From: a virus
Lineage: Duplodnaviria; Caudoviricetes
DNA length: 64,000 nucleotides
Strand: one strand, 5' to 3'
Virus record (IMG/VR): IMGVR_UViG_2917752670_000006
Span: 1,765-65,764 of that record
The notes beneath the pieces are model-generated. The model saw only the letters and a list, made by a program, of their open reading frames with translations, had not been told where the DNA came from and searched no databases. Shown here one piece after another: positions 4,472 through 23,128 of the stretch. The translations under genes and the position numbers were made by a program. The number at the start of each line of letters is the position of its first letter. The stretch's first letter is position 1.

Positions 4472-5404
4472 TCAAGACAGCTTGCGGTTGACGATCGCCT
4501 GCACAGCGTCGTAGAGGTGGCCAAGCCGGTTACGCCGCTCAGCACCGTTGCCGTACTCGCCACGAATCACCACGTCAGCCAGGGACTCCAAGTTCGGGCC
4601 CGGCGCAGGAGCAGGGGCGCTGCCAGAGAGCTTGGCGTTGACCCGGGCCTGGACCGCGTCATACAGGTGACCCAGGCGGGCCTTACGATCCGCGCCGTTT
4701 CCGTAGTCTCCACGGATCACCGCATCCGCCAAGGCCTCAATGTCAGGTGCCGGTGCCGGGCTGGCGGGCGCAGAAGGTGCGGGCTGGGATGCGCGGCCGG
4801 CAAGGATCTCGTTGACCCTGGCCTGCACCGCCGAATACTGGCTACCCAGGCGGGCCTTGCGGTCCTCACCGTTTCCGTACTCTCCGCGGATCACCGCCTG
4901 AGCCAAGGCCTCAATGTCTCCGCCGACGCTGGGTGCGGGAGCAGCCGGGCTACCACCACCGGTGATATACGGTGCGAGGACTTGAGCGGGTGGGTAGTAG
5001 CGTCCCGGGCAGGCAGTGGAGGATGCGTCTTTGTGGCCGATGATCTTGAGTGGCCCGTAGGTGGCCTGCAGGTTTCGGATCAGCTCACCAATGGTCGCCT
5101 TATCAGCATCCGAGCAGCGTGGGTTGCACTCGATACCGATCGAGCACTGGTTGATCGGCCAGTTGCCGGCATGCCAAGCGGTGTTAGCCAGGTCCACCAT
5201 CTGCACCACGCGGCCTGCTTCGACGACGAAGTGAGCGGACGCGCCACGGCCGGGGTTTTGGAAGGTGGTGATCACGCCGGACAGTTGCGGGTTCTTCGCC
5301 GGGTCGTCCCAGTGGTGGATCACGATGGTGGTGATGCGCTTACCGCCACGACCCTTGGTGTAGTTCGACGGGTGTGCTGGGGTGAAGGACTGCTGGTAGC
5401 TCAT
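4472..5404 (-). CDS. Endolysin: Amidase_2 domain + three CW_7 (Cpl-7-type) cell-wall-binding repeats
   Basis: IVIHHW, SAHF, AWHAG, GIE, GHKD..TACPG; 3x (D/N)xExLAxxVIRGxYGNG. Confidence 0.92.
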   Translation of the reverse strand: MSYQQSFTPAHPSNYTKGRGGKRITTIVIHHWDDPAKNPQLSGVITTFQNPGRGASAHFVVEAGRVVQMVDLANTAWHAGNWPINQCSIGIECNPRCSDADKATIGELIRNLQATYGPLKIIGHKDASSTACPGRYYPPAQVLAPYITGGGSPAAPAPSVGGDIEALAQAVIRGEYGNGEDRKARLGSQYSAVQARVNEILAGRASQPAPSAPASPAPAPDIEALADAVIRGDYGNGADRKARLGHLYDAVQARVNAKLSGSAPAPAPGPNLESLADVVIRGEYGNGAERRNRLGHLYDAVQAIVNRKLS

Positions 5405-10327: not shown

Positions 10328-12976
10328 TTATGCGGGGATCAGGCTGGCGGCGCGTGCGCGGCCTGCGATCGCCCGATCCATCAGGGGCGCCAGGCGCCCC
10401 ACCAACGTGCCGTCGGACAGGCGCACCTGGATATCGAGCCGGTCGATGACCGCTCTCGCAGCCTGGGTGGCGATAGCCTCAACATCCACACCAGCCATAG
10501 AGCCAGAACCGGTAAGCCCACCGACAGACGCTGATGCGGAGGTTCCATTGGGTGTTACGGCAACGGGGATGTTCACCCCACTGGCAAGGCCAGCCAGGGT
10601 GTCGGTGACGTCTCCTGCCATGGCCTGGGCTGCATCCACCGCACGCGCCCCGGTAGCAGTGATCCCTCCGGCGAGGCCGCAGGTGAGCATGTCACCCACC
10701 CAGGCCATCTGCTTTGAGGGTGAGTGGATCCCGAAGTAGTCGGTGATCCCATCCCAAATCGAGGCACACCAGGAGGCGACCTTGTTCCACAACCAACCAG
10801 CCAGGGACTGGATACCGTTCCATAGGCCGCGCACCAGGTTCATCCCCACGTCCGCGAGCTGCCCGTAACCTGAGGCCAGGCCGCCCACGATCGCAGAAAT
10901 AATCTGCGGCAGAGCCCCCACGATCGTGCCAATAATCTGCGGCAGCGCCGTGATCAGTGAGGTCAGCAGGCGGATACCAGCTTGGACCAGCTGTGGCAGT
11001 GCTGCCAGCAGGGCGGCTATGACGGCGGCGATGATGGTTGGCATCGCGGCCACCAGGGTCTGAATAATCTGCGGCAGGGCCCCGATCAGGGCTGTGAGAA
11101 GCCGGATGCCGGCATCGATCAACTGCGGAATCGCAGTCAAGATCCCGGTCACGATGCTGGTGATGATCTGCGGCAGGGCCGCCACAATGGCCTCAATGAT
11201 CGTCGGCAACGCCGTCACAATCGAAGTGAGCAGTTGGAGGCCGGCATCAATGATCATGGGGATCGCAGCAATGATGAAGTCCACCAGCGCCTGAATAATC
11301 GCCAGTAGTGCCTCAATGAGCACCGGCAGGGCTTGGATCAACCCCTGGGCCAAGCCCATGATCAGCTGCAAGGCTGCGGCAAGGATCATCGGCAGGTTGT
11401 CTGCCAACACCTGCACCATCGCGGCAAGGACCTCGGCCATCCCGACCAGCAGACTGGGAAGTCCCTGTCCGATACCGTCGATGAAGGCGGTGAGAATCTG
11501 TACCCCGACCTCAAGCAGGCCAGGAAGCAAGTTCAAGATCCCACCGATCACGGTGGTGACCATCGTGGAGGCCAAGGTGGCGATACTCGGCCCCATGGTG
11601 GACAGGGACTGGACGATGGTGTCCAAGGTTTTGAGCAGTTCCACCCCGATCTTGGGAACCTCTGTGACGAGGAACTGGGTGGCTTGCTCCACCACCGTGC
11701 CCAGGGCCTGGAGTAGGCCAGCCACCCCGCCTGTCTCGAAACCAGTCGTGAGGGCATCGACCCAGGAGTTCACCGCCGGCAGCGCCGTGGAGGCCAACAT
11801 GGATGACAGGCCCCCAGCCAGCGCGCCTTTAAGTCCTGCCATCCCGTCTTGCAGGGTCGAAACCTGCCCGGAGAAGGTCTTGGACTGGGCTTCCATCGCC
11901 CCATAAAACTGGCCACCCTCCGCCGTCGCCGAGGCGAAGGCGTCAGCGACCATGTCGGCGCTGATCGCGCCTTTTTCCATCTCCTCTTTGAGCTCACCGA
12001 CACTCTTACCGGTCTTCTTGGACATCTCCTGCAGGGGGTTGAACCCGGCGTTGATCATCTGCAACAGATCCTGCCCAGAGAGCTTGCCCGCAGAAGACAC
12101 CTGTGCGAAGGCGAGCGTGAGGGATTCGAGTTTTTGCGCATCCCCCTGGGAGATATCACCCAGCTGTCCTAGGCGTAGCTTCGCCTCATCCGCACTCATG
12201 CCGAACGCCATGAGGGTTTGGGTGTTTTTGGCCAGATCCTCCATCCCAAACGGAGTCTTCGCGGCCGTGACTTTCAGGTCGTTGACCAACTGCTGGGCCT
12301 TAGCCTGATCTCCCAGCATCGTGGTAAAGCTCGTGGTGTACTGCTCCATCGAGGCGTTGTAGGCAACACCGTCCTTCATCGCCTGGGCAAACCCGCGACC
12401 AATACCCGCGATCGCCCCGCCAATAGCCTTGACCCCGCCGATGATCGCCTCAGCAGCAAGGTTTGCTTTCAGGACATCACCGAAGATGCCGGTCTTACCC
12501 GCGGTGTCGTCGAGCTCGCCGCCGAGTTCGTCGACCTCGCGGGAGAGCTTGTCCGCCCCGGATGCCGCGTCCTTGAGCTCGCCCTCCGAGCTGCCTGCCG
12601 CGGTGGTGAGCTCGTCGATCTTGGCGGTGTTCTCACCGAGTTCGCGCTCCATGTCGTTAAGCGTGGCGGTGGCGTTGTTGAGCTGGATGCGCCAGTTCTG
12701 GGTGCGCGAATCCGACTGGCCGAAGGAGGCTGAGGCGTTGTCCAGTGCGGCCTTGAGTGCCTGGATCTTGGAGCGTTGGGCTTCGTTCTCTTTGCCGAGC
12801 ACCTGGTTGCGGGCGGTCAGGGCGTCAGCGTCGGTGGCGTTCTTACCGAACTGGGAGGCCACCACCTTCATCTCGGAGCCAAGCACCCGCATCTCACGGT
12901 TGATGTCCGCGATCGCCTTCTTGAACTCCCACTCACCCTCCAGGCCGATCTTGAGACCAAAAGTGCTATCAGCCAT
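10328..12976 (-). CDS. Tail tape measure protein
   Basis: FGLKIGLEGE N-terminus, AAKTPF tape-measure motif, LPQII repeats, FGIHSPS. Confidence 0.93.
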   Translation of the reverse strand: MADSTFGLKIGLEGEWEFKKAIADINREMRVLGSEMKVVASQFGKNATDADALTARNQVLGKENEAQRSKIQALKAALDNASASFGQSDSRTQNWRIQLNNATATLNDMERELGENTAKIDELTTAAGSSEGELKDAASGADKLSREVDELGGELDDTAGKTGIFGDVLKANLAAEAIIGGVKAIGGAIAGIGRGFAQAMKDGVAYNASMEQYTTSFTTMLGDQAKAQQLVNDLKVTAAKTPFGMEDLAKNTQTLMAFGMSADEAKLRLGQLGDISQGDAQKLESLTLAFAQVSSAGKLSGQDLLQMINAGFNPLQEMSKKTGKSVGELKEEMEKGAISADMVADAFASATAEGGQFYGAMEAQSKTFSGQVSTLQDGMAGLKGALAGGLSSMLASTALPAVNSWVDALTTGFETGGVAGLLQALGTVVEQATQFLVTEVPKIGVELLKTLDTIVQSLSTMGPSIATLASTMVTTVIGGILNLLPGLLEVGVQILTAFIDGIGQGLPSLLVGMAEVLAAMVQVLADNLPMILAAALQLIMGLAQGLIQALPVLIEALLAIIQALVDFIIAAIPMIIDAGLQLLTSIVTALPTIIEAIVAALPQIITSIVTGILTAIPQLIDAGIRLLTALIGALPQIIQTLVAAMPTIIAAVIAALLAALPQLVQAGIRLLTSLITALPQIIGTIVGALPQIISAIVGGLASGYGQLADVGMNLVRGLWNGIQSLAGWLWNKVASWCASIWDGITDYFGIHSPSKQMAWVGDMLTCGLAGGITATGARAVDAAQAMAGDVTDTLAGLASGVNIPVAVTPNGTSASASVGGLTGSGSMAGVDVEAIATQAARAVIDRLDIQVRLSDGTLVGRLAPLMDRAIAGRARAASLIPA

Positions 12977-13000
12977 GCGTGTGCCTTTCTGGGGATACGG

Positions 13001-13030
13001 AAAAGCCCCATCACATCCTGTGATGGGGGC
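13001..13030 (-). terminator. Intrinsic terminator closing the Abi moron
   Basis: CCCCATCAC/GTGATGGGG stem followed by TTTT on the minus strand. Confidence 0.7.
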
Positions 13031-13124
13031 AGTGATCAGTTGGGGATCTGTTGCGGCGAGCGATTCGCTGTCTAGCGTCAGAGCATGGGTTAGGAGGCAG
13101 TCTGGGTGTGTAGCGCCAGGTTTT

Positions 13125-13191
13125 TGCTAGAGTGGTGGCAATCGTTCAGCCCGCCTCAGCCCTTGTGCTGGGAGTGGGCTGGATCTTTATT
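13125..13191 (+). ncRNA. Candidate small RNA unit 1 (extended -10, bulged hairpin, U-rich tail)
   Basis: TG-C-TAGAGT at 13125-13133; stem TTCAGCCCGC-CTCAGC / GCTGGG-A-GTGGGCTGGA at 13145-13183 with G-U pairs on the + strand; then TCTTTATT. Confidence 0.45.
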
Positions 13192-13292
13192 CGCACCCAG
13201 AAGGAGAGGGATACTTTGCCCGCTCAAACCGGGCTACAGGTCGGCGGACAAAGGTGCTGAGGCACTCAGATGTCGAGCGGTCCAAGGTCCTC

Positions 13293-13382
13293 TAGGCTCC
13301 CGTTGCAGCTACGTACTAAACTGGTCTTACCAGTACCGGCTCGCCACGTCTTCGGATGTGGTCAGAGCCGGTCGTCATTTTT
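13293..13382 (+). ncRNA. Candidate small RNA unit 2 (promoter, UUCG hairpin, U5)
   Basis: TAGGCT-N18-TAAACT; ACCGGCTC-GCCACGTC-TTCG-GATGTGGT-CA-GAGCCGGT at 13335-13372; then TTTTT. Confidence 0.55.
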
Positions 13383-13405
13383 GTCTGGCTCGTGGCAATG
13401 TCGCC

Positions 13406-13496
13406 TGGATGTGTGTGGCGATCGTTGGGTATTATCGATACCAACACGACCGGTTCCGCTGCCCATCCTGATGGGAGTCCAGGGCCGGCCCCTTTT
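13406..13496 (+). ncRNA. Candidate small RNA unit 3 (paralogous to unit 2)
   Basis: TGGATG-N18-TATTAT; CCGGTTC..CCCAT-CCTG-ATGGG..CAGGGCCGG; then TTTT. Confidence 0.5.
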
Positions 13497-13536
13497 GCTA
13501 ATGCAACCCGATCCATCAAAACTAGGCTGATCGGGC

Positions 13537-14184
13537 CTATTTCGTGATCTGCATATTTTCTTCCAGCCAAGCTCGAGCATTCGGATCAATCCACTCCATC
13601 AGCAGGCGTGCGCGGCGAAAATCAGCGTCAAGATCGCGACGAAACACAGGTTCGAGATGGGCTGCCCGATTACGAATGAAAGTCATGCCATGCATCGCTT
13701 TAGCTACCTGCTGTTGACGCTTCAATGCGTCTTTATCGCCATGAGGAAAAGCGTGCTGAATTGCAGGCATCCACAGCGTGGTCAAGTAACGCTTTGTAGT
13801 AAGGAAGCGCCAGAACCCGAAAGAAAGCTCAGCCACGAGATGAGGATGATCAACACGGTTACCTGAACGACGCACTCGCTGCCGTGCAATGCGAATGTCA
13901 TCTTGCGCTTTCGCGTCCAACACAGGAAGGTCGAACCAGTCATTGACGTGTCCGGTATGAGCTACATAGCCCGTCAGTGCACGGTCTATGGCATTGCGTG
14001 ACACTACCTCTACCATTGCGGTAATTGCCTGAATAGAGGAAGCAATATCGATATTTCGCCGATACAGTGTGAAGGCATCCTCAATGTCTCCGCTACAGGC
14101 GTCAAGGTAGGTGGATATGCGCTCAGGGGTGATGAGACGCATCATGACCTGGGGGTCCCAGCCGCGTGCTCCCGTACTAGGCAT
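13537..14184 (-). CDS. Abi-like (Abi_2/AbiF-AbiD superfamily) HEPN protein, moron
   Basis: ERISTY, LY.RN, EV..RN, LVAELSFGFW, HEPN RxxxxH motif RNRAAH; AGGAAGG RBS; lower GC. Confidence 0.85.
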   Translation of the reverse strand: MPSTGARGWDPQVMMRLITPERISTYLDACSGDIEDAFTLYRRNIDIASSIQAITAMVEVVSRNAIDRALTGYVAHTGHVNDWFDLPVLDAKAQDDIRIARQRVRRSGNRVDHPHLVAELSFGFWRFLTTKRYLTTLWMPAIQHAFPHGDKDALKRQQQVAKAMHGMTFIRNRAAHLEPVFRRDLDADFRRARLLMEWIDPNARAWLEENMQITK

Positions 14185-14315
14185 AAACTACCTTCCTGTG
14201 CTAGTATGGCTCGCGAAGACCCCGGAACGATCACCAGCTTCGGCTGCATCGCCGGGGTTACGCCTTTTCTCAGGCCTTCCAGCTGGTAGTACCTGCACGG
14301 CAGGTGCTGCCAGAT
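14178..14315 (+). ncRNA. Candidate small RNA unit 4, divergent from the Abi-like gene (possible cognate antitoxin)
   Basis: TAGGCA-N18-TAGTAT with TG extension; GACCCCGG..CGAT..CAGC-TTCG-GCTG..ATCG-CCGGGGTT; CCTTTTCT; second G-U-containing hairpin at 14284-14312. Confidence 0.6.
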
Positions 14316-14362
14316 AGTGTTCTACCGAGGTTTTTCCTATTCTACCCCGCCCTTGGTTTGGC

Positions 14363-14973
14363 TTAGATCCCTGTGGGGATAACCGCATCAATCGTCACCT
14401 GCGCGTTGGTGCGGCTGGGTTGTTCGTGTTGCCAGTGGCATTCGACCAGGTCCAGCAGTACGCCTAGTGGGAGCAGTGCGCTCTGCCAGCGGTCCAGGTG
14501 CAGGTAGCGGTGGGCCAGATAGGTCAGTCTCGTGAGGGTTTCGGCCCATCCACTGCCTGTGGGTGTGCTGGTTAGGCTTTTGGGGAGGTAACCTCACGGC
14601 GCATTCCCGCCTCCAGGGCAGCGGTGATCGCGTCCTTGTAGTCAGCAAGCTCCCCGGGAACGGTGAGCAGCTCAATGGCCTCCGCGGTGATCTCGTCGTG
14701 CGGGTCGTGCGGGTGGGTGAGGTTGTGGATCAACACGGACTGGTTGGCCAGCAGGGCGATCAACCAGCAGATTTCACCGATCTGCTCACCCACATCACTA
14801 GAGGCTTCGAGCTTGTCGACAAGCTGCTCAAGCCCCCCGTAGCGGGAAGCGATCTCTCGGGTGGCGCGGGTGGTCAGCACCAGCTCCAGGTCTCGCCCAC
14901 CCAGGCGGATGAACGCGGAGTGTCCCGGACCTTCGGGCAGCACGCTGGTGGGGGTCTTCTTCTTGGGTGCCAT
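14363..14973 (-). CDS. Tail assembly chaperone G (14572..14973) and G-T fusion via -1 frameshift at CCCAAAA
   Basis: LVLTTRATREIASRYGGLE; slippery C CCA AAA at 14578-14584; -1 frame reads ..LTRLTYLAH..PLGVLLDLVECH..IDAVIPTGI*. Confidence 0.8.
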
Positions 14974-14984
14974 GCGTGTCCTCC

Positions 14985-15587
14985 TTAGTTGCTAGTGCCC
15001 GCGGTGGTTGTGGTGTAGGCCGGTTCGTACACGGCCTTGAACCAGGCGTCGGTGATGGACTTGGCGGCCTCGCCTTCGGTGGTTTCCACCTTCCACGGGT
15101 GCTTGCCTGAGGTGTCGGGCTTAGTGCGGTGCAGGATCGTGCCCTCGATCTCGGGGGTGGAGAATTCAATCGAGTCGCCCTTGGTGGCAAGGGATGCGGT
15201 GGGGACGGCGAAGCGGACCTTGCAGAGCCAGAAGTAGCGGTAGGTGCCACCCGCTTTGCGGGCACGGAACCCGATCGCCACTGGCGCCCCACCATCCTCG
15301 GATGTGGAGACCAGTACCTTGTTCTTATCCACGACCGCGCCAACCAGGTCTGCTGCAACCTCGACACTAATGTCATCCACACCCAGGGTGAGGGTGTCGG
15401 ATTTGAATTCCTTGACGACCTCGGCCGGTCCGTCGTCGGCATACAGGATCGCTTCAGCGACTTCGATGGACACCTCCGCGCTGATTGCCTTGGCCAGATG
15501 CTTGGGTGTGCCGTAGGTTTCCTCTCCGGTGGTGGGGTTTTCCGTGATGGTCGCGTAGAAAAGACTGTCGAGTCCGATGGTTGCCAT
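14985..15587 (-). CDS. Major tail protein (phi13 family)
   Basis: MATIGLDSLFYA, LYADDG, VAIGFRA, TKGDSIEFSTP. Confidence 0.92.
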   Translation of the reverse strand: MATIGLDSLFYATITENPTTGEETYGTPKHLAKAISAEVSIEVAEAILYADDGPAEVVKEFKSDTLTLGVDDISVEVAADLVGAVVDKNKVLVSTSEDGGAPVAIGFRARKAGGTYRYFWLCKVRFAVPTASLATKGDSIEFSTPEIEGTILHRTKPDTSGKHPWKVETTEGEAAKSITDAWFKAVYEPAYTTTTAGTSN

Positions 15588-15602: not shown

Positions 15603-15947
15603 TTAGAGCATGTGGTGGGTTTGGGTGTCGATGGCGTAGTGGTGGTAGCCGGTCTCGTCCTCGAACCCGATGTAGGAACGGACTGTGATCGTGACACCAG
15701 CGGCCAGTAGCGCGGCGGTGAGCTGGCCGCGCAGCGGCAGGTAGTCGCCCCGCACATACACGGAAAGTCGTGCTTCTTCGACCTGGGCCCCTGGGGTGTT
15801 ACCCCCGTACAGAGCCAGGGTGTCGACTAGTGGGGTGAGCACCACGAACGCTTCCGGCAGCGGGGTCTCGGTAAACAGCGCTACCCGCACCGGAAGGCCG
15901 AGCTTCTCGCAGGTGGTGGTGAGGTGTTCAAGCAGCGGGATGCTCAT
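15603..15947 (-). CDS. Tail terminator/completion protein
   Basis: Position; EEARLS..YIGFEDETGYHHYAID. Confidence 0.75.
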   Translation of the reverse strand: MSIPLLEHLTTTCEKLGLPVRVALFTETPLPEAFVVLTPLVDTLALYGGNTPGAQVEEARLSVYVRGDYLPLRGQLTAALLAAGVTITVRSYIGFEDETGYHHYAIDTQTHHML

Positions 15948-16713: not shown

Positions 16714-17031
16714 CTAGATTCTCCATTCGCGGTCCATGACGAGCAGACGGTGGATCGCTTCCCAGGCGGCGCGGGCGGCGTCGGTTTTGTCTGCCCAGAA
16801 CCCGCCGGTTGCTCCGTCGCGTGCCTCGTACAGGTGGGTTGCCAGCATGACCACACCCTGGGTGGTGGCGCTACTCATCTCGTGGGTGGCGTAGTAGCCG
16901 TCGGGCAGGTGCTGGAAGGAAGCGGCGTAGGAGGTGGCGGCCTCCACCAGGTGTGCGATCAGCTCATCATCGGCCTCGAAGTCGATGAGCAGATTGGTCT
17001 TCACCAGGGCGGTGAGTTCTCCTGTGGACAT
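16714..17031 (-). CDS. Head-tail connector (gp6-like)
   Basis: VKTNLLI..DDELI..TTQGVVMLATHLYEARDG; GGAGG RBS. Confidence 0.85.
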   Translation of the reverse strand: MSTGELTALVKTNLLIDFEADDELIAHLVEAATSYAASFQHLPDGYYATHEMSSATTQGVVMLATHLYEARDGATGGFWADKTDAARAAWEAIHRLLVMDREWRI

Positions 17032-17060
17032 TCGCCACCTCTTTTCTCGCTTGCTGGGGT

Positions 17061-18271
17061 TTAGGCGCTGGCCTTCTGGGGGGGAGGACCTGAACGGCCT
17101 CGGGGACGATGAGCTTGCCGTCCATGCGCTGGGAGGCGAGGAACCCGACCTGCCCGGTGGTGGCGAACAGCTCGTTGAGGCGCTTGAAGGAGCGGCCCAC
17201 GCGGTCTGCGATCCAGTAGTAGGACAGGTCGCCGAAGGCGACGGTGCGGGCCCCGGCCTTGATTTCAGGCACAAAGGTCGAGGTGTGCACAGGGCGGCCC
17301 AGGATCGTGTCCGGATCCCCTGCGGTCAGGGCCGGCTGCCACAGGTACTGGCCGGTGGTGTCCTTGAGCTTGCGCACGGTCTTGACGGTGGCGTCGTTCA
17401 TCAGCCACACCGCGTTCTTGCGGTACGGGGCCCGCAGCGCGTAGTGCAGGTCGATGAGCTCATCCGCCGTAATGTCGGTGGCCTTCGCGGTGGTGACGCT
17501 GGACTGTGCGCCAGAAGTGGCGTGGAAGACACCGGTGGGCTTACCTGAGCCGTCACCGTTGATGAAGGCTTCCTCTTCGGCAGCGCCCATGCGGTGAGCA
17601 AACTCGGAGGCAAGGTAGGCCTCGATGTCGAAAGCGGAGTCGTTGAGCAGTTCTTCGGAGACCTTGAGGAAGGCGCCGAGCTTGAACGCGGAGAGGGTGA
17701 CCTGGTTGAAGGTGTCATCGGACTCGGTGTACGGCTTGCCCTCATCCAGCCAGGCGGCAGACCCGTGGGTGGCGACCACCGGGATCTTGCGGTCCCCGCT
17801 GGTGGTGGTGATGACCTTGGCCAGGGTGCGCATGATGTTCTGGTCGGCCAGGGTGTCGACCAGGGTGCGTTCGAACTCGTCAGGCACCAGGTAGCCGCCC
17901 TCCGTGTCCGTGCCGACGCTCAGGGCGTTGCGGACCTCTGCCGGGCTGTGGTTCAGGCGCATCGCGTCCCAAAACGCCCGCTTATAGGTGGCAGATGCAC
18001 GACCTTGAGGTTCCTCGTCGTCGGTGTGGAATACGGCGGTGTTCATGTCGGGACGGGCGGTCAGCGGTGGGTGGGTTGCGCGGGCGAGCTGGGCGTCGAG
18101 GGTGGCGGCGCGCTCGTTGCGGGCGATCTCACCCTCCATACGGGCGTACTGAGCATCGTCCTCGGCGGAGAGGCATCCGGTCTCAGCATCGCGGCGCTCA
18201 TCGAGGAATGCCTTCGCGGCCTCCCAGGCCTTGGCGCGGCGGGCGTAGAGGTCAGTGGTGGTCATGGTCAT
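17061..18271 (-). CDS. HK97-fold major capsid protein; C-terminal frameshift in a C7 run near 17080 (reads through to 16967 as given)
   Basis: GTDTEGGYLVPDEFE, SEELLNDS, GDGSGKPTG, YLWQP, FGDLSYYWIADR. Confidence 0.93.
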
Positions 18272-18291: not shown

Positions 18292-19062
18292 CTAGTGGGG
18301 TTGGTCTGCCAGGGCGGCGTACAGGTCGGTAATCCGCCGACCTCGACGTTCAGGTACAGCGGGTTGGTGGTGGTTGATCTTGTTCACCAACGCGGCGGTG
18401 GTTGCTGCGGCGCTAAAGGTGAACCCCGCACCCAGGTTGTCGGGTACGGGGTCAGGGGCTGCAGGCTGGGCGGGGCCGGGCGGCGTAAACGCGTGGCCTG
18501 GCTGCTCTGGCTGGTAGAGGCCGTCAGCAAAACCGAGATTGATGGCGGCTTTCGCGTCCATCCAGGTTTCCTCATCCATCAGCCGGGCACGCTTGGCCCT
18601 CTGCATGCCGGTGCGTAGCTCGTAGGCGTTGATGATGGATTCCTTGACCGCGCCGAGCATCTCCACCGCGCGTGATAGTTCAGCGGCGTCTCCGGTGGCC
18701 AGGGTGGCGGGATTGTGGATCATCATCATCCCCACCGGGGAGATCAGCACCTCGGTACCAGCCATCGCAATCACCGATGCTGCTAGGGCGTCGATGATCA
18801 CGGTGACCGGATACGGGTAGTCCATGAGCATCGTGTAAATCTCGGCCGCCGCCACGCAATCCCCGCCAGGGCTGTTGATCCACACCTGGATGGGCCCGGA
18901 ACCGGCCTCCAACTCGCTCCTAAAGATGCCGGGGGTGACGTCGTCGTCGAACCAGGAGTCGGCTGCGATGACGCCGCCGATACGCAAAACCCGGTGGGCA
19001 TCATGCTCACCGGGCGGATCGGCTGGGGGCTGCTCCCAGTTCCAAAAACGGTTAACCGTCAT
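18292..19062 (-). CDS. ClpP-type prohead protease; apparent 3-aa deletion at the AASAAS motif
   Basis: WINSPGGD, LAASVIAMAG, MMIHNP, ETWM, GFAD. Confidence 0.85.
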   Translation of the reverse strand: MTVNRFWNWEQPPADPPGEHDAHRVLRIGGVIAADSWFDDDVTPGIFRSELEAGSGPIQVWINSPGGDCVAAAEIYTMLMDYPYPVTVIIDALAASVIAMAGTEVLISPVGMMMIHNPATLATGDAAELSRAVEMLGAVKESIINAYELRTGMQRAKRARLMDEETWMDAKAAINLGFADGLYQPEQPGHAFTPPGPAQPAAPDPVPDNLGAGFTFSAAATTAALVNKINHHQPAVPERRGRRITDLYAALADQPH

Positions 19063-20346
19063 AACCTGCCTCCTCTCTGTGGCTGCTTGCTTTCAGGGTC
19101 ATTAGGGTCCTCCTCAGTCGTGGGTACGGGTTGGGTGGTGGCATACGCCCCGGCCGGGGACAGGGGCAGCATGTTGCCGTTGACCAAGTACAAGTCCCCG
19201 CCATCCTCAGGTTTGATGCGGTCAAGGTTTTCGAGCTCGCGGATGTCGTTGGCACTCATCCACCCGTTCTGCCTCGCTACCGCATAGCCCTGCATGCGGC
19301 TCGCGTAGTCGCCGCGGAGCAGGCCCTCAAGGTTGAACTTGACGAACACGCCAGCATCGCGGGGATCGAGCAGGGTTTTGGTTAGGGCTTGCTCCCAGCG
19401 GATCACCCACGGATCCAACGTGTATTTGACGAACTCGAGGGACTGCTGCTCGATGTTGGAAAACGAGCTCTTGTCGAGGTCGCCGATCATGTGGGGTGGG
19501 ATGCGGAAGATCCGGGCGATCTCACCCATCTGGAACTTGCGGGTCTGCAAGAACTGCGCCTGCTCAGGGGAAACCGAGATGGGTGTCTAACACGGCGATC
19601 TTGTTGCCGTTCCTTGCTCCACCGAACGTGGCGGTCCAGGATTCACGCACCCTGGAGGGGTCTTTGATCGTGCCTGGGTGTTCGAGCACCCCGCCGGGGG
19701 CAGCTCCGTTGGCGAAGAAGGATGCTCCGTAGTCTTCGCAGGCTTGGGCCATGCCGATCGCGTTTTTTGCTATCGCAATCGGCGAATAGCCAACCAGGCC
19801 GTCAAACCCCAGCCCCGGAATGTGCAGCACCTCGGAGGGTGGGAGTACGACGCGTTCGTACTCGGCCCTCGGTGGCTCCTCACTCGTGCGCTGGTACTCG
19901 TAGTAGAGTCGGCCCGCGCTATCGCGGCCCACCTGCATGCGGTTAGGCATCAATGGGTACAGGCCGATGACTTCGCCGCGGCCGTTGCGGATCACCTGCG
20001 CGTAGGCGTTGCCCCACAACAGCAGGTGGGTCATGAGGGTTTCCCGGAACACGAATGAGGTCATTTCCGGGTTCGGCTCGTCATGCAACAGGCGGTAGAG
20101 CGGATGGGAGATGGCTTTCTCTTTCCCGCCATCGGGGCGTGTTTGGTAGACGTGCAACGGTAGGCCCGTGATCGCCTCAGCCAGAATCCGCACACACGAG
20201 TACACGGCCGTCATCTGCATGGCGGTGCACTCGTTGACCGCCCTCCCAGAAGATGTAGGGCCGAACAGGAACGAGTACGAAGATCCAAGCGTGTGATTCC
20301 CGATCGGATCTTCCCAATCGCCACGCAACCAGTTCCAGAATCCCAT
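19059..20346 (-). pseudogene. HK97-family portal protein broken by a short deletion near 19590
   Basis: AVYSCVRILAE, EPNPEMTSF, GLGFDGLVGYSP; the usual EEGMKY stretch is missing before TPIS; C-terminal half is ORF 19059..19550. Confidence 0.9.
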
Positions 20347-20374: not shown

Positions 20375-21019
20375 ATGGAACAGATGCACAGAAGCTTCAA
20401 AGATGCTTGGAGCAACGACACCACCCTGGTCTATCCTCCAAGCCCAGCGGAGGAGGGTGAACGTTGGTTTTTACGTACTCCGATAAATGCGGATCACAGT
20501 GAGGAGGTCGTGTTTATTGGGATGAATCCTTCTAAGGCCACAGCTCTCCAACAGAGAAATAAAGGTGGCGACCCAACGACAAAAGTTCTGTTGGATCATT
20601 TCCCTCTGGACGATCAAAACCGGCCCATTAATTGCAGACGTATTACAATCGTGAACCTCATTCCATTAGTCGCAGGAAGCAAAGAAAAGCTTCCTGATTG
20701 GAAGAAGTTTGATAAGCGTCTAGAAATTCTTGAATCGGTTGGAGTAACCTGCTTAGTTTTGCCTTCTATTTTGAACTCTGCAGACATCGTTATCCCCATG
20801 TGGGGCGACCCTCAAGCGTCTGATTACCCCTGGAAGAGATGCGTTCTGCCGATTGTTAAGCACCTTATGAAAGAGTGCCGCAAATTCAAGGATTTCAAGA
20901 TCCAAGGTTTTACTCACCCAACCAGGAGATTTCCCTACCACTGTTCACATTCCGAGAATGTTACGAAGTGGAGCAAAGACACATGGACAGATGACGCTTC
21001 CTTCGTTCTACAAGACTAA
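20375..21019 (+). CDS. DUF1643-like protein; low-GC moron between terL and portal
   Basis: FIGMNPS.A..DPT..IVNL..MWG; TATAAT (20363-20368) 6 nt before the ATG. Confidence 0.65.
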   Translation: MEQMHRSFKDAWSNDTTLVYPPSPAEEGERWFLRTPINADHSEEVVFIGMNPSKATALQQRNKGGDPTTKVLLDHFPLDDQNRPINCRRITIVNLIPLVAGSKEKLPDWKKFDKRLEILESVGVTCLVLPSILNSADIVIPMWGDPQASDYPWKRCVLPIVKHLMKECRKFKDFKIQGFTHPTRRFPYHCSHSENVTKWSKDTWTDDASFVLQD

Positions 21020-22618
21020 CAATCCGCGTTGGTCGTAGATAGATCCTGTCGATGCACCTGTACCGCATCGGATAGCTCGGTCCAGAGCCATGATGAGGGC
21101 GATGACGCCGTCGATCTTTTCGGTGCTCTTTTGTTTGTCGGGTTTGATGTTGCCGGCGGGGTCTTGCCGGATATGGATGTTGTCGACCATCCATGCCAGC
21201 ACCTTGTTCCCGCCATGCTGAATCTTGCCTTTGAGGGCGAGCTTCATCAGCTCCTTGCTCGGCGGGGACATGTCTTTGAAGCCTTGCCCGAAGGGGACGA
21301 CGGTGAAGCCCAGGGCGTCGAGGTTCTGGCTCATTTGCACTGCGCCCCACCGGTCGTAGGCGATCTCGCGAATGTCGTAGCGGGTGCCGAGTTCCTCAAT
21401 GAAGGCTTCGATCGCGGCGTAGTGGACGACGTTGCCTTCCGTGGTGTGCAGCAGGCCTTCGCGTTCCCACTGGTCGTAGGGCACGTGGTCACGGCTGACC
21501 CGCAGTTCGATGTTGTCCTCGGAGATCCAGAAGTGCGGCACTACCACATACGGCTCGGTCTCGTCCCTAGGTGGGAAGACGAGGACGAGGGCGGTGATGC
21601 CAGTAGTACTGGCCAGGTCCAGGCCGGCGTAACACACCCTGCCCTCCAAGGAGGCGGGGTCGATGGGAGTGCTGCCTTTGTCCCACAGGTGCATGGGCAT
21701 CCACCGGATCGACTGCTTCACCCACTGGTTGAGGCGCAGCTGTCTGAAGCTGTTTTCTTCGGCGGGGTTGATCCTTGCCGAGTGGGCGGCTGCCCGCACT
21801 TTGTCGATGGGCACGGTGATGTCCAGGCTTGGGTTGGCTTTGCGCCACACCGCCTCGTCCAGCCAGTCATCCTCAGGATTGGCCCCGTAGATCACCGAGT
21901 AGAACGTCGGATCATTCTTTTTGCCGTCCAGGATGTCGCGGGCTTTCTGGTGCTGCTCGAAACACACCGAGGCAGTATTCGTTCCTGCCGTGGTGATCAG
22001 GAAGTACAGCGGCTGGGTACGGGCATCACCCGAGCCTTTGGTCATGACGTCGAACAGGGCCCGGTTGGGTTGGGTGTGTAGCTCATCGAAGACGACCCCG
22101 GAGATGTTGAAGCCGTGCTTGGAGCAGGCCTCAGCGGAAAGCACCTGGTAGAAGGAGTTGGTTGGGGTGTAGACGATGCGCTTTTGGGAGGCCAGGATTT
22201 TCACCCGTCTGGCCAGCGGTGGACACAGCCTCACCATGTCGGCAGCAACCTCGAAGACGATGCTCGCTTGCTGGCGGTCTGCCGCACACCCATACACCTC
22301 GGCACGCTCCTCACCGTCCGCGCAGGTGAGCAGCAGGGCGATTGCGGCAGCGAGCTCGCTTTTGCCTCGCTTTTTGGGGATTTCGACGTAGGCGGTGGTG
22401 AACTGGCGGTAGCCGTCGGGCTTGATGGTGCCGAACAGGTCGCGCACGATTCTCTCCTGCCAGCCCAGCAGCTCAAAAGGCTTGCCCGCCCAGCGGCCCT
22501 TGGTGTGTTTGAGGGCTTGGATGAAGGCGACCGCGTAGTCGGCTTTGCGCTTGTCGTAGTGGGAGCCCTCATCCATGAACCGGGTCGGCACATAAGCGTC
22601 CGTGCTGGTGCTGGTCAT
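21008..22618 (-). CDS. terL: Terminase large subunit
   Basis: Walker A IPKKRGKSEL, Walker B VVFDELH, LDLAST, KIDGVIALIMA. Confidence 0.95.
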   Translation of the reverse strand: MTSTSTDAYVPTRFMDEGSHYDKRKADYAVAFIQALKHTKGRWAGKPFELLGWQERIVRDLFGTIKPDGYRQFTTAYVEIPKKRGKSELAAAIALLLTCADGEERAEVYGCAADRQQASIVFEVAADMVRLCPPLARRVKILASQKRIVYTPTNSFYQVLSAEACSKHGFNISGVVFDELHTQPNRALFDVMTKGSGDARTQPLYFLITTAGTNTASVCFEQHQKARDILDGKKNDPTFYSVIYGANPEDDWLDEAVWRKANPSLDITVPIDKVRAAAHSARINPAEENSFRQLRLNQWVKQSIRWMPMHLWDKGSTPIDPASLEGRVCYAGLDLASTTGITALVLVFPPRDETEPYVVVPHFWISEDNIELRVSRDHVPYDQWEREGLLHTTEGNVVHYAAIEAFIEELGTRYDIREIAYDRWGAVQMSQNLDALGFTVVPFGQGFKDMSPPSKELMKLALKGKIQHGGNKVLAWMVDNIHIRQDPAGNIKPDKQKSTEKIDGVIALIMALDRAIRCGTGASTGSIYDQRGLLVL

Positions 22619-22689
22619 GGTGGTTCTCCCTTCTGGGGTACAGGCAAACGCCCCAGGAGCGTGGGCTCGTGGGGCGCGAGGCGTGGCGG

Positions 22690-23004
22690 TTAGGCGTTGT
22701 GGTTGGCCAGGGGCCCAGCGAGGGCTACCTGGAGTGCTTGGATCATGGTTTGGGCGTTGTTCAGGGCGATGACCAGCTCGGTGGTCTGCATCGGGGTCAG
22801 CGCCCCAAAGCTGGTGGTCTGGATCGTCCATTGCCCGTCCGTGTAGTACAGGGCGGGAATGTAGGAGGTCGGGTCGGTGGGGATGACCTCGATTGGCCGG
22901 TGGGTATCGGCGGTGTTGATCCGGTGGACCGTGTAACCAAGCTTCGTTGCGTGGCGGATCAGTTCGGCGGTGTTGGCCTTGGCGGTGGTGTTCAAGGTGT
23001 TCAT
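22690..23004 (-). CDS. Small hypothetical protein (cassette 1)
   Basis: AAGGAG RBS; downstream of repeat 23044-23128. Confidence 0.65.
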   Translation of the reverse strand: MNTLNTTAKANTAELIRHATKLGYTVHRINTADTHRPIEVIPTDPTSYIPALYYTDGQWTIQTTSFGALTPMQTTELVIALNNAQTMIQALQVALAGPLANHNA

Positions 23005-23043
23005 AGCCAGGCTCCTTGTCGTGCGTTTCGGTGGTTGTTTGGT

Positions 23044-23128
23044 CATGTACATACAGCCATACCCACCCGCACATATCCAGCCGTTTTGCCTGATATTCCG
23101 CGGTTTTCTAGAGGGAATCATCTCTATG
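23044..23128 (-). promoter_or_regulatory. Repeated cassette promoter/operator, copy 1
   Basis: CATGTACATACAGCCATA..TATCCAG.. plus AGAGGGAATCATCTCT. Confidence 0.75.

Follow-up and report, generated by a model that had tools for sequence, protein, structure and literature searches.

AbiF toxins and their RNA antitoxins were characterised only in 2025, and these toxins are held to be the ancestors of Cas13. In this work, we present a comparative analysis of a related locus with a different wiring: the gene abi215, encoding a 215-amino-acid Abi-like HEPN protein, and a short hairpin element of the opposite strand located just upstream of it, both found in a 64,000-nucleotide (nt) stretch of provirus DNA (IMG/VR record IMGVR_UViG_2917752670_000006, positions 1,765 to 65,764), hereafter called the window, whose numbering is used throughout. 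The obtained results support a module of the AbiF RNA-antitoxin type in which the RNA is new and the layout divergent, and which appears to be widespread in Actinomycetota.

According to a review (PMC12737573) and a preprint on C. difficile (bioRxiv 10.1101/2025.04.15.648962), AbiF is a HEPN toxin neutralised by an adjacent, cis-encoded structured non-coding RNA (ncRNA) which binds the protein; in the case of PbAbiF, each monomer binds one ncRNA. RCd22 of C. difficile comprises two abiF motifs; its start lies 168 nt ahead of abiF on the toxin strand, and RNA and toxin gene are transcribed together. The same preprint places Abi_2/AbiF mainly in Bacillota and Pseudomonadota (10.1101/2025.04.15.648962). 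A further report, PMC12165695, states only that AbiD/F proteins co-occur with RF03085. The literature found describes a single RNA motif for AbiF, abiF (RF03085), and a single layout, in which the RNA is co-transcribed on the toxin strand. No actinobacterial or divergently encoded AbiF RNA partner was found there; the Cell 2025 AbiF survey with its supplements, which lay outside the scope of the search, may list one.

The locus described here is built from the following parts:

13537..14184, minus strand: abi215, a 215-residue AbiF-fold HEPN RNase and putative toxin (open reading frame and translation, motifs, fold).
14191..14197, minus strand: Shine-Dalgarno sequence AGGAAGG of abi215, 6 nt before the ATG (read from the sequence).
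14202..14207, plus strand: -10 box TAGTAT of the predicted hairpin RNA gene, with TGc before it at 14199-14201 (positional conservation).
14212..14270, plus strand: conserved hairpin RNA, candidate antitoxin (covariance-model match, covariation).

Like AbiF/AbiFr (8VZ6) and AbiF_Cd/RCd22, it comprises a single HEPN protein of the AbiD/F fold with an R-N-x-x-A-H motif and, adjoining the toxin gene, one short GC-stemmed hairpin with conserved unpaired bases. As in AbiF systems, it is found in prophages and defence islands, and by analogy binding of the RNA to the toxin would be the expected mechanism. The differences are equally clear. The abi215 protein has 215 residues compared with 297 in the 8vz6 chain, is 15% identical to it and lies under the Abi_2 cut-off, while the RNA of the window is longer than the abiF motif (three stems and a hairpin of about 40 versus 37 nt), has another sequence and gives no RF03085 match. 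Its family is hosted by Actinomycetota, unlike the main phyla named in the RCd22 preprint. An Rfam scan of phage phiC2, our positive control, placed RF03085 upstream of abiF with 37.6 bits, and the abiF motif consensus in this phage reads CCCGCC-A-AGC-loop-GCU-CAAAUC-GGCGGG.

The open reading frame (ORF) at 13537..14184 is open for 215 codons on the minus strand, with its ATG at 14184-14182. The protein carries EVVxRN at residues 59-64 and RNRAAH at residues 171-176, the latter satisfying (as R171-N-R-A-A-H176) the C-terminal HEPN motif R-[NHD]-x-x-x-H as defined in bioRxiv 10.1101/2025.04.15.648962. Residues E59, V60, R63 and N64, as well as the whole RNRAAH, are invariant in 36 of 36 aligned family sequences. 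With Pfam Abi_2 (PF07751), abi215 scored E 0.084 and 13.6 bits, under the gathering cut-off of 25.6; Abi_2 was matched at E<=0.01 by 9 of the 36 family members (best 1.6e-4), and HEPN_Swt1 was reached by 6. These profile matches point to a relation between the abi215 family and Abi_2 that is real but lies under the curated threshold. PADLOC gave matches of abi215 to PD-T4-5 (E 1.9e-5) and AbiD (E 0.0043), PHROGs gave none, and a sequence-profile search of the Protein Data Bank (PDB) returned no chain at E<=10.

The AlphaFold2 model of abi215 is all helical, with a predicted local distance difference test (pLDDT) score of 89.5 and a predicted template modelling (pTM) score of 0.85. In Foldseek its top rank was 8vz6_A (probability 1.00, query TM score (TMq) 0.65, E 0.057), all other rows having TMq <=0.21. 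Alignment by VIA-align with the same chain gave Z 12.3 and a root-mean-square deviation of 3.0 A over 191 of 215 residues, at 15% identity, the runners-up being Csm6 (Z 5.8) and HepT toxins (Z ~5). This entry, entitled 'PbAbiF dimer bound to ncRNA', is the sole clear structural relative of abi215. Judged from the model, the protein belongs to the AbiD/F HEPN lineage, of which it is a short and divergent representative with putative RNase activity and putative toxicity. A preliminary description of the locus, made from the sequence alone, had claimed an intact 215-residue Abi-like HEPN ORF with RNRAAH, and this is borne out by the reading frame, the motif in 36 sequences, PADLOC, the weak Pfam match and the PbAbiF fold.

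A word-indexed search yielded 110 abi215 homologues among 461 candidates. The names of their sources are actinobacterial (Actinomyces, Arsenicicoccus, Gordonia, Curtobacterium, Arachnia, Dermatophilaceae), the exception being one distant match from Arcicella. Identity between homologous proteins is 38-66%. An exhaustive profile search returned 617 clusters (50% identity) at E<=1e-30 and 3920 at E<=1e-10, and the 617 clusters would represent a large actinobacterial branch of the AbiF-type protein family which is not captured by Pfam. For comparison of gene surroundings, one genome per species was scanned; 410 places encoding a relative were obtained and the best 80 kept, all of them from Actinomycetota according to their record titles. 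One of them, L001, is a closely related prophage that is 82% identical over the whole 1.8-kb query in blastn.

With L001 set aside, the piece best conserved in blastn of these 1.8 kb is not the gene but about 55 nt at 14214-14267 (80-94%), which lie directly upstream of the gene in nearly every locus. The DNA identity of the element, short-word blastn included, is 80-98%, as compared with the 38-66% of the proteins. Located by a 12-nt anchor, it stands <=200 nt upstream of the gene and head-to-head with it in 74 of the 80 loci. In the window, GAAGA at 14215-14219, seven bases past the -10 box, is followed by a hairpin at 14219-14258 (hairpin 1) with stems 14219-14225/14252-14258, 14228-14231/14248-14251 and 14235-14238/14243-14246. 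Unpaired are an AA bulge (14226-14227), an internal loop of CAC (14232-14234) versus C14247, and the UUCG loop (14239-14242), and a U-rich tail follows at 14259-14270 (UUACGCCUUUUCU). The 5' end of the RNA would be G14215 (GAAGAC...). We infer from these elements an RNA gene of about 55-60 nt with its own actinobacterial -10 box, a three-stem hairpin, invariant bulge and internal-loop bases and a U-rich tail. Hairpin 1 folds with -23.6 kcal/mol (z -3.34) on the plus strand and -21.1 kcal/mol (z -1.71) on the minus strand; taken as a whole, the 203-nt intergenic stretch exceeds its shuffles in structure on the plus strand only (z -3.03, compared with z -0.63 for the minus strand).

The plus-sense consensus of an alignment of 75 loci is GTAnnnTnGnTnnCGAAGACCCCGGAACGATC(A/C)CTGGC-loop-GCCA(C/T/A)ATCGCCGGGGTT(T/A)CGTCTTTCC. 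It is preceded at fixed distance by the complements of GGAGG and ATG, a GGAGG-like block thus standing at the same distance from the hairpin in the consensus of these loci. Over 15 pairs, 99.6% of 1124 cells are standard pairs, compared with 33-43% when the partner is slid by 1-3 columns. Double-sided changes occur in four pairs (A-U to G-C at alignment positions 37/78; U-A to C-G at 53/66; G-C to A-U at 54/65 and at 55/64) and amount to 28 cells; in 500 shuffles neither this number of cells nor the covariation score was ever attained, while the count of four pairs itself was reached by 14 of 500. Six hairpin pairs never vary and are therefore uninformative either way, and the apical loop varies freely across copies. 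An outer helix GAAGAC/GUCUUUC was rejected because changes in the 3' flank are not compensated.

The covariance model R1, built on hairpin 1 and covering 59 positions, found one match in the window (78.9 bits, E 9e-25; the next one 11.5 bits, E 0.22) and 77 copies of 61.5-83.4 bits in the best 80 loci, but no copy in five distant viral homologue loci. Among 151 genomes of the phylum, 6 had a match at E<=0.001, strong in two only: the source genome of L003 and one new genome, where the copy lies beside an abi homologue. The remaining four matches are weak, have no abi homologue and look unrelated; one of them, adjoining a tRNA T-arm, looks like an unrelated GC-rich terminator. Likewise, many of 116 metagenome and 5 viral 17-mer matches were discarded as chance matches without the hairpin. 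Rfam gave no match at E<=1 in 12500-15500 nor at E<=10 in 14150-14400. Hairpin 1 is a conserved, covarying RNA-like element tied to the abi215 gene family, and the UUCG hairpin of the preliminary description stands on its coordinates, the 78.9-bit match, the 77 copies in 80 loci and the covariation. The family thereby gains a hairpin RNA that differs from the abiF motif, is very strongly conserved and is absent from Rfam.

The actinobacterial -10 consensus is TANNNT. Its last T lies 6-8 nt ahead of the G of GAAGAC in 73 of 75 loci, and exactly 7 nt in 61, while the three middle bases are free (38 different hexamers in the 75-locus set); the same test on the other strand gave 11 of 75. When metagenome and viral copies were added, 136 of 144 distinct copies had TANNNT at this 6-8 nt spacing from GAAGAC. 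Of all features flanking the hairpin, this predicted opposite-strand promoter is the best conserved. The tail is T-rich (>=5 T in the 8 bases after the stem) in 59 of these 144 copies in the plus sense versus 9 of 144 in the toxin sense, and, of 101 distinct hairpins, 22 have a GNRA or UNCG tetraloop when read in the plus sense and 6 when read in the toxin sense. In the window, plus-strand TAGGCA (14178-14183), an 18-nt spacer and TG(c)TAGTAT span both the ATG and the Shine-Dalgarno sequence of abi215. The proposal that a promoter covers the toxin start and ribosome-binding site (RBS) holds for TAGTAT, with the 73 of 75 and 136 of 144 copies behind it, and is not supported for the -35-like TAGGCA, which is not conserved across loci. 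Judged on these patterns, the hairpin gene probably lies on the plus strand, and such wiring, a divergent RNA gene whose promoter overlaps the toxin RBS, would be different from the one described for AbiF.

Upstream of abi215, two additional features bear on its mRNA:

14283..14313, plus strand: second hairpin, 14 bp including two G-U pairs (fold; not part of the conserved module).
14339..14344, minus strand: TAGAAT, putative -10 box of abi215 mRNA (present in the window and L001).

There is no room for a toxin promoter between hairpin and RBS, so the leader of the toxin mRNA would extend across the hairpin, in antisense to the small RNA. Transcription from TAGAAT would give a 5' leader of about 150 nt, antisense to both hairpins, and the Curtobacterium loci share TGnTANNNT about 30 nt upstream as a toxin-sense candidate. 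The idea that minus-strand TAGAAT drives the toxin mRNA is retained for a candidate only: the box is there, and it recurs in L001 alone. The second G-U hairpin had also been noted beforehand. It is present and strongly strand-specific (plus strand -25.6 kcal/mol, z -5.99; minus strand -15.4 kcal/mol, z -2.39), but its conservation was not found: nothing is conserved past column 90 of the 75-locus alignment, and among the loci only L001 has this hairpin, with just the upper stem kept. It may be a back-up terminator of the hairpin RNA in this phage.

Six of the 80 loci lack a head-to-head element (L053, L045, L018, L062, L065 and L071). In L053 an insertion sequence (IS) with transposase-like ORFs separates the element from the gene, and L018 retains a degenerate remnant; L062, L065 and L071 are Gordonia loci, all with the Shine-Dalgarno sequence kept. 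L045 has an intact 222-aa homologue behind a metallophosphoesterase gene, and the hairpin is missing upstream of this homologue. It is found instead 60 nt past the stop codon, co-directional with the homologue, and TTGACG-16 nt-TAGTAT-7 nt-G stands in front of it. In L209, a provirus related to the window, the same slot contains a canonical 311-aa Abi_2 gene (PF07751, E 2e-49), situated upstream of the hairpin (1463-1521) and co-directional with it, that is, oriented oppositely to the arrangement in the window; TAAACT is retained there, 8 nt ahead of GAAGAC. The promoter, the hairpin and the 3' flank are common to L209 and four more loci (L122, L140, L167, L174), which suggests cassette swapping at the RNA gene. 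As the -10 box is kept in both L045 and L209, it is not a by-product of the toxin 5' end. Finally, the viral contig L210 (IMG/VR) has a 68.1-bit copy at 1497-1555, oriented in the plus sense within a block of head genes that is co-directional with it. On one side of this copy is an ORF that has no family match, on the other are two same-strand ORFs, one of which is the major head protein (phrog_2522, E 1.5e-81). The copy is accompanied neither by an abi gene (within 1.5 kb) nor by a -10 box. Because of this co-directionality and the missing box, only the plus sense would be transcribed there, and the copy could be a phage-borne decoy antitoxin. The relocated RNA, the RNA beside a different Abi_2 gene and the phage-borne copy are natural variants that make the mechanism testable.

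Neighbouring genes vary from locus to locus, comprising type I/II restriction-modification methylases, tyrosine integrases, IS transposases and a Panacea-domain gene, as well as housekeeping genes (gyrA, purD, uvrD-like) and contexts outside prophages. These differences indicate that gene and hairpin move as one compact unit.

Some variants were noticed aside from these. In L062 and L065 the place of the canonical hairpin, some 60-130 nt ahead of the abi homologue, is taken by another hairpin of about 50 nt (stem CGGACCGG/CCGGTCCG), which may be an alternative RNA partner; both keep a TATCGT box, and L071 has the Shine-Dalgarno sequence and a degenerate box only. In L008, orphan hairpin copies at 5113-5170 (74.6 bits) and 5248-5305 (29.6 bits) follow the abi gene at a distance of about 500 nt, and they are not accompanied by another abi gene. 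Past the 3' flank of the hairpin, a conserved element of about 75 nt, forming a long stem or three-way junction (TAGGCTCnCGGTGnC...ACGC..GCGCCCGAAGGGCCGnGAGCCTA), occurs in about 13 loci (L011, L015, L017, L021, L026, L028, L033, L038, L041, L047, L053, L069, L077), several of which adjoin tRNA genes; it had no Rfam match in the 5 loci scanned.

We read the locus as a two-part, AbiF-type (type III-like) toxin and RNA-antitoxin defence module, carried as a moron by a siphovirus-type prophage. Its architecture, a divergent RNA gene next to an AbiF-fold protein, is supported by the sequence comparisons, and here the head-to-head, type III-like module proposed at the outset agrees with the 74 of 80 loci, the covariation, the promoter, the AbiF fold and the AbiF literature. 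The whole chain up to function we hold to be probable by a narrow measure. In this mechanism, a lysogen would make the hairpin RNA constitutively from its own promoter, and the RNA would bind the HEPN protein and block its active site, in the manner of AbiFr with PbAbiF and of RCd22 with AbiF_Cd. Phage infection or loss of the element would then deplete the RNA and free the RNase, leading to abortive infection or addiction. Action in trans on the protein is proposed because of the invariant unpaired bases, the relocated copy of L045, the phage-borne copy of L210 and the RNA-bound structural relative. Transcriptional interference or antisense pairing with the toxin leader may form a second layer keeping toxin synthesis low, since the RNA promoter overlaps the toxin RBS and start, the toxin mRNA must begin beyond the hairpin, and the head-to-head overlap is near-universal; promoter occlusion is included in this layer.

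Several observations weigh against this reading. The window's own tail, UUACGCCUUUUCU, is not T-rich by the terminator measure used above. G-U cells in the plus sense outnumber A-C cells, a weak strand test, by 11 to 3 in 75 sequences and by 14 to 9 in 102 distinct cores, some of them degenerate; this excess shrank with more sequences, so the strand call was not rested on it. The mean hairpin stability is nearly equal on the two strands (-20.68 kcal/mol for plus, -20.59 for minus). The one RNA run found to contain any of this DNA (13% of the sampled words), compared together with three further runs, gave a single contig of 265 nt, within the ORF (13707-13971), and none over the hairpin, such contigs being unstranded and uninformative on expression of the RNA. 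In the other loci, toxin-sense TANNNT upstream of the hairpin shows no positional conservation. RF03085 was found nowhere in the whole provirus record, the model being silent also in 14 control genomes. Unlike AbiFr and RCd22, which are encoded on the same strand as their toxins, the RNA gene of the window appears divergent, with its own promoter over the toxin RBS; and the large unpaired stretch of the abiF motif is on the 3' side, which the window element matches in the toxin sense only.

The RNA might instead act purely in cis, as in type I systems, through leader pairing, promoter occlusion or polymerase collision and without binding the protein. For such a device the head-to-head overlap kept in 74 of 80 loci would be expected, as would an RNA -10 box always placed between hairpin and toxin Shine-Dalgarno sequence, and the toxin leader must indeed be antisense to the RNA, with TAGAAT (window) and TGnTANNNT (Curtobacterium) as promoter candidates. 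Complementarity, however, needs no fixed sequence, which leaves the invariant bulge and loop bases across many actinobacterial families unexplained; the copies in L045 (downstream and co-directional) and L210 (no abi gene) could not act on the leader in cis, and the closest structural relative is an RNA-bound AbiF. We regard a purely antisense RNA as unlikely.

Another possibility follows the layout of both characterised AbiF systems (bioRxiv 10.1101/2025.04.15.648962): the hairpin would be read in the toxin sense, in the 5' untranslated region of abi215 about 20 nt before the RBS, where it would be bound by the protein or serve as an attenuator, TANNNT being incidental. In the toxin sense, the 3' side does carry the unpaired bases (UU bulge, GKG loop), which agrees with the abiF motif, the invariant UCUUC past the hairpin could pair with the GGAGG/GAAGG Shine-Dalgarno sequence, and the G-U counts are compatible with it. 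Such a leader nevertheless gives no explanation for the constant spacing of TANNNT (7+/-1 nt in 136 of 144 copies), for retention of the box in L045 (with a good -35) and in L209 (with a different gene), or for the T-rich flank. Upstream there is no positionally conserved toxin-sense promoter, a terminator-like tail follows in the toxin sense in no more than 9 of 144 copies, stable tetraloops are commoner on the other strand (22 versus 6), and in L210 the toxin-sense strand would be antisense to phage head genes. We hold a same-strand leader to be improbable.

That the element works as DNA, being an operator, recombination site or cruciform, or as a bidirectional terminator insulating the moron from the tail operon, with no RNA regulator involved, is very improbable: perfectly conserved palindromic arms are typical of protein-binding DNA too, and in the window the hairpin marks one edge of an inserted cassette, but compensatory changes in four pairs with a free apical loop are the signature of a folded single strand and not of a duplex, the element accompanies the abi gene outside prophages as well, and an insulator would leave its own promoter unexplained.

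Within the favoured type III-like reading, a bolder version can be formulated, which we find rather doubtful. One 57-nt RNA, with its promoter set into the translation start region of the toxin, would make the module a type I/III hybrid, plugging the HEPN site and at the same time acting as antisense to the toxin leader; phages would counter it with the promoter-less decoy of L210; and the RNA would constitute an unrecorded, phylum-wide Actinomycetota family and a second, independent type of RNA partner for AbiF. If so, firing of the RNA promoter and expression of the toxin would be mechanically exclusive, and this would concern the very AbiF lineage that gave rise to Cas13.

Comparison with other toxin-antitoxin systems places the module apart from each of them. 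In hok/sok, a short (~60 nt) constitutive RNA is transcribed oppositely from within the 5' region of the toxin mRNA. The window shares with it a predicted short opposite-direction RNA in the toxin 5' region, but its toxin is predicted to be a 215-aa, all-helical, soluble HEPN RNase and not a small hydrophobic membrane peptide; its RNA leaves the RBS uncovered, with a 5' end 17 nt from the Shine-Dalgarno sequence, and is conserved in sequence far past the needs of antisense pairing. With ToxIN, CptIN and TenpIN it would have in common an RNA antitoxin of a defence RNase. Phages escape ToxIN through a phage-borne pseudo-antitoxin copy, and the L210 copy could be a parallel to it. Unlike in ToxIN, there is no tandem repeat array, the window having one copy and each locus one except L008, and the fold is HEPN and not ToxN/AbiQ. 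The HEPN fold is also that of HEPN-MNT (HepT/MntA, type VII), HepT chains being weak structural matches (Z ~5), but no MNT nucleotidyltransferase gene adjoins abi215; the flanking ORFs are tail genes or have no family match.

The minus strand of the provirus record carries a siphovirus morphogenesis operon, and its place within this operon identifies the region of abi215 (the gene, the upstream 203 nt and a 560-nt spacer) as an inserted cassette, a moron of putative defence function between the tail chaperone genes and the tape-measure gene. The following features surround or delimit it, phage genes being assigned by family matches of window ORFs:

21008-23074, minus strand: large terminase.
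19564-20346 and 19059-19550, minus strand: portal, two ORFs.
Minus strand: ClpP-type protease.
16967-18271, minus strand: HK97-type capsid.
Minus strand: head completion protein and gp10-like protein.
15603-15947, minus strand: tail terminator.
14572-14973, with overlapping ORF 14388-14675, minus strand: tail protein, likely chaperone pair.
12977..13536, no strand: non-coding spacer of 560 nt from abi215 to the tape-measure gene (L001 comparison).
13006..13028, minus strand: terminator-like hairpin, 10 bp, tail CTTTTCC (terminator scan; also conserved in L001).
10328-12976, minus strand: tape measure, after abi215, then Dit and tail endopeptidase.

The GC content is 0.55 over 13001-14000 versus about 0.62-0.65 on either side, and the strong terminator-like hairpin at 13006-13028 closes the cassette about 30 nt ahead of the tape-measure start. 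Neither tRNA nor tmRNA was found in the window. In blastn of the region against a phage collection, the match was limited to 78 nt of the tape-measure gene.

The spacer is considered non-coding because it is 92% identical to L001 with indels of 1-2 nt; its ORFs had no PHROG match. This 92% identity between the window and L001 contrasts with just 66% between their abi proteins. A second candidate mini-RNA gene was noticed in this spacer at 13317-13388 on the plus strand, convergent with abi215 and of the same build as the main one: TAAACT (13317-13322), 7 nt, a 38-nt hairpin (13335-13372) with a CUUCGG loop, and a U5 tail (to 13382). The plus strand of 13328-13388 folds with -28.9 kcal/mol (z -4.62); L001 has TAATCT as its box, and a single difference in the stem replaces A-U by G-U on the plus strand.

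Elsewhere in the operon, the portal ORF 19564-20346 matches profile positions 2-201 and the ORF 19059-19550 matches positions 218-321, in different frames (window 19059-20346, minus strand). Such a split points to either a frameshift or an error of sequencing, and the prophage is therefore possibly defective. On the opposite strand, a DUF1643 gene (20375-21019, plus strand) located between portal and terminase coincides with a GC trough of 0.505 and looks like another moron.

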